Assembly (NCBI GenBank): GCA_963842815.1
Contig: CAWJHU010000003.1
Span: 91,683-155,682 of the forward strand
Source of the DNA: Candidatus Nomurabacteria bacterium
Lineage (GTDB): Bacteria > Patescibacteriota > Minisyncoccia > Phycocordibacterales > UBA9973
DNA length: 64,000 nt
Reading direction: 5' to 3'
The notes beneath the pieces were generated by a model that saw only the letters and a list, made by a program, of their open reading frames with translations, ran no database searches and was not told where the DNA came from. Below, piece by piece: positions 1-8,670 of the stretch. The position numbers and the translations under genes were made by a program. Within the stretch, counting starts at the first letter, position 1, and each line of letters opens with the position of its first letter.

Positions 1-413
1 ACCGAGGAAGTCGTAAATTTTATATTCGCATCACCGACAGCCTTCGCCTTAAAAGACAGAGTGGCAATTGTACCGTCATTACCCTGAAAACCACTTAATA
101 TAATTCCCTCCATACTGACAATACCGCTTATATTTGAATAAGACGGGTCCACGGACCAAAGGCCGATAATGGAATTATCTTTGGAAACGGAACCCAAAGT
201 TAATAAATCTTTTGGAAAAGAAATAGAGACGGAAATTGCGTTGGCGGATTGGTTGGGACTTGATAAGACAATGCGAACTTTTATGGTATCGCCTACGTTA
301 TAGGAACCGGAAGAAGGCGACAAAATAAGGTCGGAGGCAAAGGCGGAGCGCCCCAAAAATAAGACGAATAGAAAAAAGAAAAATAATAATAATTTTCTAT
401 TAAATTTTTTCAT
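1..413 (-). CDS. Cohesin-like domain secreted protein (N-terminal part; gene runs off the window start)
   Basis: ATG at 413 on the minus strand. Translation: MKKFNRKLLLFFFLFVLFLGRSAFA (signal peptide) then SDLILSPSSGSYNVGDTIKVRIVLSS...ISFPKDLLTLGSVSKDNSIIGLWSVDPSYSNISGIVSMEGIIL...GTIATLSFKAKAVGDANIKF. This matches the cohesin-domain pattern of CPR cohesin proteins. Not in the ORF track because it is truncated. Confidence 0.55.
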   Translation of the reverse strand, partial: MKKFNRKLLLFFFFLFVLFLGRSAFASDLILSPSSGSYNVGDTIKVRIVLSSPNQSANAISVSISFPKDLLTLGSVSKDNSIIGLWSVDPSYSNISGIVSMEGIILSGFQGNDGTIATLSFKAKAVGDANIKFTTSS

Positions 414-474
414 ACAATAATTATACATTGTGAAAGCGTAAATTACAAATAAAATATGTGATAAAAATAAACAA

Positions 475-2259
475 TTATCCGGTCCAATAATATGCCAAAA
501 TACTAAAATCGATTAAATTTACAACTCCATCGCCATTTAAATCAACAGTAGCCGGCGGATTTTTTTTCTTGTACCAAAACGCCTCAATGGAAAAGTCGAT
601 CAGGTTGGTTTTATTATCATTATTCAAATCGGCCTTTGAGGAAGTAATCACTGTTTTTTTCTGCACAACATTTTGGTCCGCCACGGTGAATGCCACCGTT
701 TTGCCGTAAGAACTGATTGTTCCATCTTTAGCCACCTTTGATTTTGCGGTGTGGTCCCCAAGATCCAATTCGGACGAATCTACAACTTGCAGATATACTC
801 CGTTTTTGTCCGAGTTTACCGTTTTAAATATTTCCTGTTCGGAATTGATTGTAATGGTAACCTGACTGGTCGGCGCCGACTGTCCAAAAAAAGTTATATT
901 GTCGCCTTTTTTAACTTGCGATTTATCAACAGCCAAAGTCGGGGCGAGAAAAATCCCACCGATGTTGGTACTTGCCCCGGCCGTAAGAGACACCGGAAAA
1001 GTAAGAAGAGAAGAACGATTGCCCTGATTGTCTTCCGCGTAAACACTGAAGATATAACTGCCGGCGGTAAGGCCATTCACATTAATTAAAAAATTTGCGT
1101 CTTCCCCTGCCTTTGTGGAAACAAGCACTTGGGCATCCTTTAACAGCACCACGGTGCTATTGGGATATGCCCGGCCGGAAAAAGTAGTTGCGTTTGAAAC
1201 AGGAATTATATTTACATATGCGTTTCCCCCACCACTCCCTCCGGTACTTCCGCTGTTGTTATTATTATTTGAAGTGGCAGCGCCTAAAATAGCAAAGTTG
1301 CTAAAATGGGTAGTGGTTGCGCTGATAGTTTTGTGTACCGTATCCAAACTTTGATTGCTCAATGCCGACCATTGACTGCCATCCCAGCGATAAAGCTGCA
1401 AACTTGATTCGCTTAAACCGGAAATATCGGCATCCGTATAGGAAATGGTAATTGTAATGGGTTGAGTAAAGGTGCTGACCTGTGTTAAATCGCTTTCCTT
1501 ATAAATGCTAAAATTATATATGGTGCCGGCTGCAACTTTGTCACTGGGTACGGGGAGTGTAGCGCTAACCTCAGTTTTAGGAAAAGAAGATAACGACATT
1601 TTAAAAGTATCATCATTGGCCAAAGTGTTGGCCGGAATATTTATTGTTGCCACAGTGTTATCCGAACTGGTTAAAGATTTGGAAACGGTTTGGGTTGGAA
1701 TAATTGAATTGACTGTTTCGCTGGAAGTTATATGCACAGTGGAAATCGGAGTGGCACCTACCGCCGCCGATTCGTTAAGTAAAATTCCAAGAGAATAGGA
1801 ACGTATTTTGAAAAAATATGGAGTGCCATTTGCTAGACCTGTTTTTATGTAGGTCAAAACATTGCCCACAGAGGTAAATGTGTAAGTTCCGCCGGAGGAT
1901 GTACTAACGCCAACTTCATAGTTTGTGATATTAGCAAAAATACCCGTGGCAGAAGTCCAATTAAGGATTACCTGGGAATCGCCGGCTGTGGCCGAAACTA
2001 TAGGAGAAGAAGCCATAGAAAAATATAAAGAACCGGCATCCTGTAAAAAATCGGAGCCGGAACTTTGTCCGTTGGTCAACTCTCCTGTACTGCCCAAATA
2101 TTGAAAATTAGGAGAGGATGCTTGTCCTCCACCTGTAATATCCGTTGAATTTTCCAGTTTAAAATTTGTACTGGTGGAATCTGCCTGGGCAAAATTGAAA
2201 AATATTACTCCAAGAATAATTACGAAAATAAAAGAGTATTTATTATTTAAAAAATTCAT
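475..2259 (-). CDS. Secreted surface protein with a C-terminal dockerin-type duplicated Ca-binding repeat
   Basis: N-terminal signal peptide MNFLNNKYSFIFVIILGVIFFNFAQA. Ser/Thr/Gly-rich beta-rich body. C-terminus DLNNDNKTNLIDFSI...DLNGDGVVNLIDFSILAYYW is two dockerin type I segments. Confidence 0.65.
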   Translation of the reverse strand: MNFLNNKYSFIFVIILGVIFFNFAQADSTSTNFKLENSTDITGGGQASSPNFQYLGSTGELTNGQSSGSDFLQDAGSLYFSMASSPIVSATAGDSQVILNWTSATGIFANITNYEVGVSTSSGGTYTFTSVGNVLTYIKTGLANGTPYFFKIRSYSLGILLNESAAVGATPISTVHITSSETVNSIIPTQTVSKSLTSSDNTVATINIPANTLANDDTFKMSLSSFPKTEVSATLPVPSDKVAAGTIYNFSIYKESDLTQVSTFTQPITITISYTDADISGLSESSLQLYRWDGSQWSALSNQSLDTVHKTISATTTHFSNFAILGAATSNNNNNSGSTGGSGGGNAYVNIIPVSNATTFSGRAYPNSTVVLLKDAQVLVSTKAGEDANFLINVNGLTAGSYIFSVYAEDNQGNRSSLLTFPVSLTAGASTNIGGIFLAPTLAVDKSQVKKGDNITFFGQSAPTSQVTITINSEQEIFKTVNSDKNGVYLQVVDSSELDLGDHTAKSKVAKDGTISSYGKTVAFTVADQNVVQKKTVITSSKADLNNDNKTNLIDFSIEAFWYKKKNPPATVDLNGDGVVNLIDFSILAYYWTG

Positions 2260-7140: not shown

Positions 7141-7239
7141 ATCTATTTTTTACAGTGGATAAATAAATCATACACTGTCTGTATATTATAGGGCAAAAAT
7201 ATATTGGAAGCAATCAAAGAAGGAACGCCGTGTGGAAAA

Positions 7240-8670
7240 TCATTCGTCTATTATTTCAAAGTCATTTCCTGCTGTTTGGGAAGTAATTTTTCTCTTGCGG
7301 CTGCGAATAAAATAAGTGGCGCTTGTGCTAATCCCTAAAAAAGCAACCAAGCCTAATATTCCATATTTGAAGTTATCTTTTGTGGCAGTATTATTTGGAG
7401 GAATTTGAGCCAATAAATTATCAACGGGTATCTCGGCCGTTGCATTGCTATTATCTTTCGCCGTGGATATTTTTGCCGAAGCGGAACTATTTGTTAAAGT
7501 TTTTATTGGCTTCTGTAGAGCTGCATAATCAAAAATCGTTTCTCCCTGTGGATTTATCAATTTTAAAGTATCTTTATCTAAAATTGAAAAATTGGTAATT
7601 TTTGAAGAGACCATCATCTTGCTTTTTGATTTAAGAATCGTATTTTTGGGCAGAGTAAAACTTCTTTCGGCACTCGAGAGAACCCATTTTGAAAGGTCCG
7701 CATCATAATTGGTATTATTGGAAATTTCCACAAAAAAATCTTTTTCATCTCCAACCCTGCTTATGGAAATATCTGCCGGCACTATTTTGATAGTTATTTT
7801 GTCCGAAGCATTCGGGTTTTCGGAATAATAATTCTGATAATATTCCAGGGATACGGCATATTCACCCTCGTAGAAAAAAGTGTGTGTAAATTTTGTTGCA
7901 TCGGTAAGTTTTATTTCTTTGGAATCTCCATCGCCGAAATTCCAGAAATATTTTCCGGAAAAAAGAGATTCGCCGGAATACCCTGTAGCACTGGCATTGA
8001 ATAAAACAGGCATGCCGACAAAAGCGAGCGTTGGAGCTATAATTTTTGTTTTAATTTGGGGAATTTCAATTGCTTTTGTTTTTGTGTCAACCGTATCTTG
8101 CGCGGAAAAACTATTGGCCGGAAGCCCATAGCTGACGGAACTATTATTGGATTCCGCCGTGGAGCCGGCAGAAATATAATTGGGCGCACCCGGAGTGGGC
8201 GAAGCTGCCTGCCATAGGTTGTTAAAAAATTGCAAAGAATTCCCGGTACCCGAAGCATCCGCCAAAGTTGTATAAGTTACGGAATTAATAATTTTTTTAT
8301 CTGAATCGGAGATGGCTTTATAGGTATTATATTTGGAGCTATCGTTGGGTAAAGAAAATTGAGAGGAACTAAAAACTGTTCCGGAAAAGGAATTCCAATC
8401 GGCGGTGGAGGTTATTATGGCATAGCTTCCGCCGGACAAGAGAGCGGACCCTTTTTGCAGTCTAAGCGGAGCGGAATCGTCCGCGTTGTTAAAAAACCTC
8501 CAGTCAGTCAAATCAACAGAATTATTCCCTGAATTAAAAATTTCTATCCATTCAGCTTCGCCATTTATCGGCGCATACATTATTTCATTTATAATTACCT
8601 CCGCCCGAGCCAGTCGAAATGAAAACAAAAAAATAAACCCCAACAAAATTAAAATTGTTTTTTTAGACAT
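7240..8670 (-). CDS. Lamin-tail-domain (LTD) surface protein with a C-terminal TM anchor
   Basis: Signal peptide MSKKTILILLGFIFLFSFRLARA followed by EVIINEIMYAPINGEAEWIEIFNSGNNSVDLTDWRF (LTD consensus INEI...EWIEL.N...V.L.GW). C-terminal hydrophobic helix plus basic tail YGILGLVAFLGISTSATYFIRSRKRK. Confidence 0.6.
   Translation of the reverse strand: MSKKTILILLGFIFLFSFRLARAEVIINEIMYAPINGEAEWIEIFNSGNNSVDLTDWRFFNNADDSAPLRLQKGSALLSGGSYAIITSTADWNSFSGTVFSSSQFSLPNDSSKYNTYKAISDSDKKIINSVTYTTLADASGTGNSLQFFNNLWQAASPTPGAPNYISAGSTAESNNSSVSYGLPANSFSAQDTVDTKTKAIEIPQIKTKIIAPTLAFVGMPVLFNASATGYSGESLFSGKYFWNFGDGDSKEIKLTDATKFTHTFFYEGEYAVSLEYYQNYYSENPNASDKITIKIVPADISISRVGDEKDFFVEISNNTNYDADLSKWVLSSAERSFTLPKNTILKSKSKMMVSSKITNFSILDKDTLKLINPQGETIFDYAALQKPIKTLTNSSASAKISTAKDNSNATAEIPVDNLLAQIPPNNTATKDNFKYGILGLVAFLGISTSATYFIRSRKRKITSQTAGNDFEIIDE

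Follow-up and report, generated by a model that had tools for sequence, protein, structure and literature searches.

A conserved dockerin–cohesin gene pair in Patescibacteria and its candidate role as a cell-surface tether

The locus and its dockerin and cohesin genes

We analysed a 64,000-nt stretch of contig CAWJHU010000003.1 from a Candidatus Nomurabacteria bacterium (the window), in which positions 1-8670 hold a four-gene locus for putative surface proteins, including a dockerin-ended stalk protein encoded next to a cohesin protein. All relevant open reading frames (ORFs) lie on the minus strand and, along the direction of transcription, encode a lamin-tail-domain (LTD) protein, a collagen-like fibre, the dockerin protein and the cohesin protein; each product bears a signal peptide or an anchor. 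The original prediction for this stretch had put the four genes on one strand, as we find, and the cohesin gene upstream of the dockerin gene, but with respect to transcription it lies downstream, its start codon 61 nt from the dockerin gene. The flanks are ordinary chromosomal genes (a pfkB kinase, a split transketolase, dnaE, tRNAs and RNase P RNA), and, judging by its homologues, the organism belongs to the Patescibacteria, among Paceibacteria/Nomurabacteria-like metagenome-assembled genomes. Searching the ORFs with hidden Markov models (HMMs) revealed no further cohesin or dockerin ORFs within the 64-kb window. The features of the pair are as follows.

413..1, minus strand: cohesin-anchor gene, 5' part (137 codons), running off the left edge of the window; Pfam Cohesin PF00963
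420..448, minus strand: promoter-like site TTGTAA-17 nt-TATAAT in the 61-nt gap, from a consensus scan; weak evidence
2259..475, minus strand: gene for the dockerin-ended stalk protein, 594 aa, secreted; ORF with Pfam fn3, Big_6 and Dockerin_1
478..639, minus strand: dockerin module, residues 541-594, the exact C-terminus ...YYWTG; Dockerin_1 PF00404
655..1200, minus strand: two Ig-like Big_6 domains, residues ~354-535; Pfam Big_6, 32.1 bits
1270..2004, minus strand: FN3 domain (residues ~86-170) and beta-sandwich insert (~171-330); Pfam fn3, 25.5 bits
2005..2181, minus strand: N-terminal head motif, residues 27-85; conserved in two family alignments

The dockerin module reaches 28.9 bits against a Dockerin_1 (PF00404) gathering score of 22.9 and comprises two 22-residue segments, each a Ca2+ loop followed by a helix (residues 544-565 and 573-594). 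The duplicated stretches that were originally read as a dockerin correspond to residues 544-558 (nt 630..586) and 573-587 (nt 543..499). A profile of the dockerin family matched the PDB entries 2y3n_B (9.8e-6) and 1daq (3e-4), and in the AlphaFold2 (AF2) model the helices span residues 553-561 and 582-590 at a predicted local distance difference test (pLDDT) score of ~95. Conservation of the Ca2+ ligands was counted in an alignment of 66 homologues. In segment 1, positions 1, 3, 5, 9 and 12 are D in 66, N in 65, D in 62, N in 61 and D in 65 sequences; in segment 2, positions 3, 5 and 12 are near-invariant (N in 60, D in 64 and D in 66), position 1 being fully conserved in the first segment only. 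Both helices are conserved, and positions 10-11 are Leu-Val/Ile in both segments. The Pfam match, the profile and the ligand conservation confirm a canonical duplication of Ca2+-binding segments. In many homologues the first Ca2+ loop carries a Cys, at position 6 in 27 of the 66 and at positions 4 and 8 in six each, possibly as a disulfide partner or metal ligand; the loop of the window's dockerin (residues 547-551) has none.

Upstream of the dockerin the protein is a chain of small domains: signal peptide, head motif, FN3, insert, Gly linker and two Big_6 domains. More than 250 homologues were found. The Big_6 pair is conserved more strongly than any other part of the family and is modelled as all-beta at a pLDDT of ~90, and the FN3 domain is also supported by profile matches to FN3 structures. 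The beta-sandwich insert appears in the family alignment only in P0001, P0013, P0043, P0055 and P0080. The head motif is Ser/Thr/Gly-rich and reads TSTNF..GGG..SS.NFQY..G.S.S..F...G.LYF. AF2 renders the whole protein as beads on a string (mean pLDDT 78), and a Foldseek search with this model returned generic FN3/Ig chains only and no enzyme, being uninformative on the head motif and the dockerin.

The cohesin fragment begins with a signal peptide (residues 1-26), and the module follows from about residue 27, matching Pfam Cohesin PF00963 at 28.6-28.7 bits (gathering score 24.1); the stretch LSPSSGSYNVGDTIKV, quoted earlier as typical of cohesins, lies at ~320..273. A single-sequence homologue search with the 137-aa fragment gave only 2 matches, and the full-length protein was recovered by a profile built from 10 sequences. 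P0160 (324 aa) is 100% identical to the fragment. Through P0242, a member of its 90% cluster, we reached contig L085, the first 674 nt of which are 100% identical to window positions 674..1; exact-sequence look-ups of the window's dockerin protein and of P0160 returned no record. L085 (1-6950) adds 6.3 kb beyond window position 1 and thus supplies the upstream extension that had been proposed as a check, with the cohesin gene complete. Next come genes for a YchF GTPase, an S-adenosylmethionine-dependent methyltransferase, an M23 peptidase, a 181-aa ORF and LeuRS with a NUDIX insert. Because these housekeeping genes directly follow the cohesin gene, the surface cluster ends at one cohesin gene in this genome. 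YchF also comes after the cluster in three related loci (L004, L086 and L088).

P0160 consists of a signal peptide, the cohesin (~27-160), a Pro-rich tether (~165-214), a transmembrane helix (~223-245) and a cytoplasmic helical tail (246-324). AF2 models it at a mean pLDDT of 85.5, with an N-terminal signal helix, the cohesin domain at ~98, a low-confidence tether of ~50 residues, and transmembrane and cytoplasmic helices at 215-288 and 295-323. It is thus a predicted type I membrane protein that exposes the cohesin on the cell's exterior and has a conserved helical tail of ~75 residues inside. In a Foldseek search of the PDB with this model, ranks 1-39 are all cohesin modules (best E 7e-10; target template-modelling scores 0.65-0.77; rmsd 2.5-3.4 Å) at a sequence identity of just 13-20%. 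The leading matches are mostly type I (6kgf_C at E 7e-10, 4dh2, 1g1k, and also 2vn5/2vn6) and include type I cohesins solved as complexes with dockerins (6kgf, 4dh2, 2vn5/6); the non-cellulosomal cohesin of A. fulgidus, 2xdh, ranks 17th. The cohesin-like ORF therefore passes the fold check that had been set for it. Among 1.84 billion representative sequences the cytoplasmic tail was found in 41 clusters, always C-terminal in proteins whose lengths match those of this family, or else in short fragments; that search gave no functional lead and no occurrence in other protein types.

Cohesin and dockerin are the defining modules of cellulosomes, and the window also contains a GH130 gene (22404-24335), so a cellulosome-like, polysaccharide-degrading complex was considered. 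We regard it as extremely unlikely, given that the sole dockerin protein is made of FN3 and Ig-like domains without a catalytic or carbohydrate-binding module, and that each anchor protein here carries a single cohesin on a transmembrane helix. The GH130 gene, on the minus strand, encodes a 643-aa protein with two stretches of GH130 (mannooligosaccharide phosphorylase) similarity and no dockerin, and is therefore not linked to the pair. Pfam searches found no enzyme, carbohydrate-binding module, scaffoldin or S-layer homology (SLH) matches at the locus, and the cellulosome reading was rejected on domain content.

Linkage of the pair in relatives

The synteny scan, with one genome per species, identified relatives of the dockerin protein in at least 509 genomes, and 80 loci were retrieved. 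Their ORFs were searched with HMMs built from the family alignments, and the count was limited to loci with at least 2.5 kb of downstream sequence (n = 66). In 65 of the 66 loci the dockerin gene is directly followed by cohesin genes on its own strand, often with overlap; all positive loci have at least two copies, and nine have at least three. The reverse check, from three cohesin proteins, found a dockerin gene directly upstream in each case. Synteny in relatives, on which the original prediction had staked the association, thus holds for dockerin and cohesin. Since both domains exceed curated Pfam thresholds and the adjacency recurs in 65/66 loci, the cohesin-plus-dockerin pattern is not due to chance.

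The common order in relatives is the dockerin gene, then a tail-less cohesin anchor of ~300 aa, then an anchor of 350-600 aa with a cytoplasmic tail; the conserved tail was detected in 50 loci. Window and L085 together represent a reduced form with only the tail-bearing anchor. With its single cohesin followed by housekeeping genes, this genome therefore retains a minimal pair of one cohesin and one dockerin protein. Three proteins of ~870 aa (P0123, P0124 and P0125) are natural fusions of both anchor types, laid out as cohesin, two transmembrane helices, cohesin, Ig domains, transmembrane helix and tail, with three membrane spans. As judged from their domain order, these fusions are Rosetta-stone evidence that the two anchors may work side by side in the membrane.

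A consensus scan for promoters and terminators found no intergenic terminators in the region, and promoter-like sites exceed the shuffled background only modestly (24 versus 13.4 +/- 3.9 in shuffles).

The head motif was found in 38 loci and divides the relatives into subgroups. In ~33 species loci it is part of the dockerin protein, as in the window. The other large subgroup has a short dockerin protein (two Big_6 domains and the dockerin) and carries the head motif on a separate protein, as in L025 and L086. That genomes differ in whether the head is joined to the stalk or encoded as its own protein argues, from gene architecture, that the two modules work together. The second subgroup also encodes a C-terminal-transmembrane protein of ~306-338 aa with sub-threshold similarity to WxLIP_PGBD (E 0.01-0.02; 15-16 bits against a cut-off of 27.3). 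In ~25 loci the dockerin gene is immediately preceded by a gene for a single-transmembrane protein of ~140 aa, which the window lacks.

The extended clusters L086 (356-8469), L088 (1122-8956) and L087 (1888-7604) combine these components. Besides the short form of the dockerin protein, they encode a small transmembrane protein, a ~335-aa protein that has a C-terminal transmembrane helix and sub-threshold WxLIP_PGBD/fn3_5 similarity, and secreted proteins, one or two per cluster, whose sequences end in ...ATGTF. The number of cohesin anchors is between two and four, or one fused anchor of ~870 aa in L087. One of the ...ATGTF-ending proteins bears the head motif that the window fuses to its dockerin protein. 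L064 (2963-12811) is built differently: the N-terminal half of its dockerin protein diverges, and a 2,769-aa surface protein lies downstream in place of cohesins. That protein contains ALVISEVKAGSFTDQYDEFVELFN, which is lamin-tail-like by eye alone.

The collagen-like fibre, the LTD protein and other window features

The two remaining genes of the locus precede the pair in the direction of transcription.

8670..7240, minus strand: LTD-PKD-LTD surface protein, 476 aa, with signal peptide and C-terminal transmembrane anchor; Pfam LTD, PKD
7140..2279, minus strand: collagen-like fibre gene, ~1,620 codons after frameshift repair; Pfam Collagen
7140..6406, minus strand: fibre signal peptide and 245-aa head domain
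6408..4193, minus strand: fibre G-X-Y region, 729 residues (runs of 243, 468 and 18 in register)
4192..2282, minus strand: fibre C-terminal beta-rich region, 637 aa, with a tail-fibre-like tip at ~3043..2282
5657..5697, minus strand: 1-nt deletion site (CCT-CAG-GGC to CCT-AGG-GCC), a 41-mer among 42-mers

Pfam Collagen (PF01391) matched the fibre gene at 135 and 235 bits. The repeat copy at 5657-5697 is 41 nt long, one C shorter than five other 42-nt copies, and this deletion splits the gene into ORFs 7140..5665 and 5668..2279; the two collagen ORFs are one gene broken by a 1-nt deletion. A triple helix rises 0.286 nm per residue, so that the 729 G-X-Y residues would span ~210 nm if fully triple-helical. 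NCBIfam collagen-adhesin models (NF038329, NF038330 and NF046116; Lcl, SclA and SclB) align to the G-X-Y region only and stay below their cut-offs (339.5 against 500, 248.8 against 325 and 239 against 400), and no LPXTG motif was found in the fibre. Neither the LTD protein nor the head or C-terminal region of the fibre had a significant match in sequence searches of the PDB.

A sequencing or assembly error is probably a likelier cause of the collagen frameshift than decay into a pseudogene, because dnaE, an essential gene on the same contig, also has a 1-nt indel. The dnaE gene (DNA polymerase III alpha; 13639-16993, plus strand) is split into overlapping ORFs of 697 and 441 aa by an indel near 15694-15705 that cuts the finger domain in two; a 1-nt shift is needed for its CCCCGGGCCCGATGGAATC to be translated continuously as ...YRPGPMESIPEYIKRKH. 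Both indels adjoin a GGGCCC site, of which the window has 8. The collagen-like gene of L002 (4348-8449) is likewise split within its G-X-Y repeats (4348-5952 and 5996-8449), and split fibre genes in both genomes may reflect either common repeat-induced assembly errors or recurrent frameshifting.

Over its last ~250 aa the fibre matches phrog_11393, a family of phage tail fibres, at E 7.5e-10. Together with the frameshift, this match would suit a prophage tail-fibre remnant, the neighbourhood then being the scar of a mobile element. We consider this very unlikely: no other phage genes flank the locus, where the neighbours are a pfkB kinase, transketolase, YchF and LeuRS; the fibre carries a signal peptide, and its head domain is common to chromosomal giant surface proteins of relatives; and the dnaE indel points to sequence error over decay. 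A PHROGs search gave no match for the cohesin, dockerin or LTD proteins or for the fibre head domain. The prophage reading was rejected on domain content and flanking genes.

In relatives the fibre is found through its head rather than its collagen part. G-X-Y collagen lies near the module in only one other genome (L002/L003) among 84 related loci. The head domain recurs in nine related loci, within 10 kb of the dockerin gene and without exception on its strand, upstream of that gene in six and beyond the cohesin genes downstream in three; the upstream proteins include non-collagen giants of 2,315 and 2,425 aa. All nine belong to the ~33 species loci with the head motif on the dockerin protein, of which they make up about a quarter, and nine is a lower bound, several upstream giants being cut by contig ends. 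A giant fibre is thus a recurrent but facultative companion of the module.

The LTD protein matches Pfam LTD in two stretches at 84 bits (gathering score 34.3) and also matches PKD. The C-terminal anchor that had been assigned to it is present, as a hydrophobic helix at ~437-455 followed by RSRKRK. Its homologue was found in none of the 84 related loci.

The original prediction had gone further and combined all four genes into a cohesin–dockerin surface scaffold. In its fullest form, the pair would serve to assemble or anchor the fibre and the LTD protein, giving a single organelle for host attachment. This reading is compatible with four adjacent genes on one strand whose products all have signal peptides or anchors, with the giant genes carrying the fibre head domain within 10 kb and on the strand of the dockerin gene in nine loci, and with a fibre tip similar to the tail fibres with which phages bind receptors. 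We regard it as quite unlikely. Pfam and HMM searches found no dockerin or cohesin domain in the fibre or the LTD protein, and since neither carries one, nothing in their sequences suggests that they plug into the pair. The co-conservation expected of the four genes is not seen either, with the LTD protein missing from all related loci, G-X-Y collagen confined to one other genome, the fibre head absent from most loci and no multi-cohesin scaffoldin. The four genes do not form a conserved unit, and the LTD and fibre genes are loose or chance neighbours encoding further surface proteins. What stands of the scaffold is the cohesin–dockerin pair; the four-gene unit does not, nor does a scaffoldin, each protein having a single cohesin.

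Other parts of the window bear features of their own. Positions 40000-47735 are low in G+C (0.30-0.35 against ~0.40) and may be an integrated element; a large serine recombinase (45824-47386; Resolvase, Recombinase, Zn_ribbon_recom) abuts a cluster of four tRNAs (47324-47735), and a LOOT RNA lies at 45036-45180 (Rfam RF03000, 61.8 bits). A 785-aa surface protein at 31364-33721 (minus strand) combines Big_7, Bact_surface_Ig-like and Big_3 domains with a C-terminal PG_binding_1 domain and, going by these domains, illustrates a different, putatively wall-binding mode of anchoring in the same genome.

A candidate membrane tether and its relation to known systems

Module identity, predicted topology and near-universal linkage on one strand support a model in which a non-cellulosomal cohesin–dockerin tether probably holds an Ig-like stalk on the Patescibacteria cell membrane. 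The enzyme-free stalk protein (2259..475) would be exported with its type-I-like dockerin at the C-terminus. The cohesin, at the mature N-terminus of its own protein, would be held above the transmembrane helix by the Pro-rich tether of ~50 residues, and Ca2+-dependent docking of the dockerin on it would keep the stalk non-covalently at the cytoplasmic membrane while the stalk head projects through the wall. The near-symmetric dockerin segments may permit either orientation, that is, a dual binding mode, because Leu-Val/Ile occupies positions 10-11 in both. What we infer beyond these observations is the physical binding, its Ca2+ dependence, a role in adhesion or envelope architecture, and attachment to a host.

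Several observations weigh against this model. The Pfam cohesin score is only modestly over its threshold, and the profile matches PDB cohesin sequences weakly (E 0.012-0.047). AF2 cannot fold the stalk head, where the motif stays below a pLDDT of 50. L064 is the sole exception to the linkage, with a dockerin gene but no adjacent cohesins. Mirror-tree correlations are similar for dockerin versus cohesin (r 0.36-0.37) and Big_6 versus cohesin (r 0.36-0.41), and reveal no dockerin-specific co-variation with the cohesin. Finally, many non-cellulosomal dockerins reportedly lack an identified cohesin partner (Peer et al. 2009, cited in PMC9012536).

The lack of a specific mirror-tree signal would also suit modules that do not bind each other, the dockerin-like end binding a glycan or the wall, the cohesin-like proteins acting as independent adhesins or assembly factors, and adjacency reflecting a shared pathway. 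The additional surface proteins in the clusters of relatives, which suggest a larger multi-protein complex with other contacts, fit this alternative, as does the occurrence of the cohesin fold in a non-dockerin-binding context (for example the CLIPPER domain, 9ifr, Foldseek rank 29). We nevertheless consider it unlikely, given the strict dockerin-then-cohesin(s) order in 65/66 loci, the conserved Ca2+ ligands and helix faces, and the nearest structures, which are bona fide dockerin-binding type I cohesins in complex.

The tether could be extended to a three-tier, non-covalent, episymbiont-specific host-attachment organelle, in which the operon forms the membrane base of Paceibacteria appendages. 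The cytoplasmic tail would couple to an intracellular partner, the stalk would cross the wall, and the head would fold only on capturing another protein, such as the head of a giant fibre encoded nearby. We offer this elaboration as a long shot.

The ultra-small Patescibacteria (the candidate phyla radiation, CPR) account for a large share of bacterial diversity, and most presumably live attached to hosts; to our knowledge, almost all of their surface-building proteins are unannotated. A set of one dockerin and one to three cohesins with a membrane-anchored socket is a testable candidate for a core envelope or attachment element, with dockerin-protein relatives in no fewer than 509 species-level Patescibacteria genomes. 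If the tether is real, cohesin and dockerin would serve an uncultivated lineage as a conserved membrane-tethering device, beyond enzyme assembly, and the set might be a source of new orthogonal cohesin–dockerin pairs for protein engineering.

The pair shares its modules with the clostridial type I complexes OlpC-Doc435 of C. thermocellum (4dh2), CohA2-Doc0917 of C. acetobutylicum (6kgf) and those of C. cellulolyticum (2vn5/2vn6). The cohesin beta-sandwich fold is common to all, and the dockerins are alike in their duplicated 22-residue Ca2+-loop/helix segments with D1-N3-D5-D12 ligands. The near-symmetric segments of the stalk dockerin resemble dual-binding-mode dockerins, although positions 10-11 are Leu-Val/Ile here and Ser-Thr in C. 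thermocellum. Unlike clostridial cellulosomes, the system described here has no enzymes, carbohydrate-binding module or multi-cohesin scaffoldin, and its cohesin is anchored by its own transmembrane helix with a cytoplasmic tail, whereas cellulosomes use SLH domains or sortase.

Cohesin and dockerin modules outside cellulosomes are said to have been surveyed by Peer et al. in 2009. In these non-cellulosomal reports the modules occur in varied domain contexts with unassigned partners, whereas here they form a fixed, linked pair or triad with a dedicated transmembrane anchor and cytoplasmic tail. Such modules occur without cellulose degradation in anaerobic methanotrophic (ANME) archaea (PMC9012536) and in giant proteins of Omnitrophota (PMC10066038), and have been proposed to act in surface assembly or cell-cell contact (PMC9012536, PMC10066038). 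In Southlakia epibionticum, a Saccharibacteria epibiont, SEML1_0315 is an essential envelope protein with a dockerin domain, for which the authors speculate a role in host adhesion (PMC10633639). It is likened to the stalk protein by description only, and a cohesin partner is not reported in PMC10633639.

The fibre has counterparts in Scl1/Scl2, Lcl, BclA and phage tail fibres with collagen motifs, all of which combine a long G-X-Y region with a globular non-collagen tip. It differs from them in its much longer collagen part (729 residues), in having no LPXTG motif that could be found, and in its distinct 245-aa N-terminal head, which is common to non-collagen giants of relatives. The clusters of relatives, with their ~335-aa transmembrane protein and small secreted beta-rich proteins, weakly resemble WxL/Csc clusters of Firmicutes; WxL clusters, however, have neither cohesin nor dockerin, and these additional genes of the relatives are absent from the window. 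We did not find this operon, or a transmembrane-anchored cohesin with a conserved cytoplasmic tail, described in the full texts searched, a coverage that mostly excludes subscription journals. The modules themselves are textbook; their fixed pairing, the type of anchor and their breadth in an uncultivated lineage are not.

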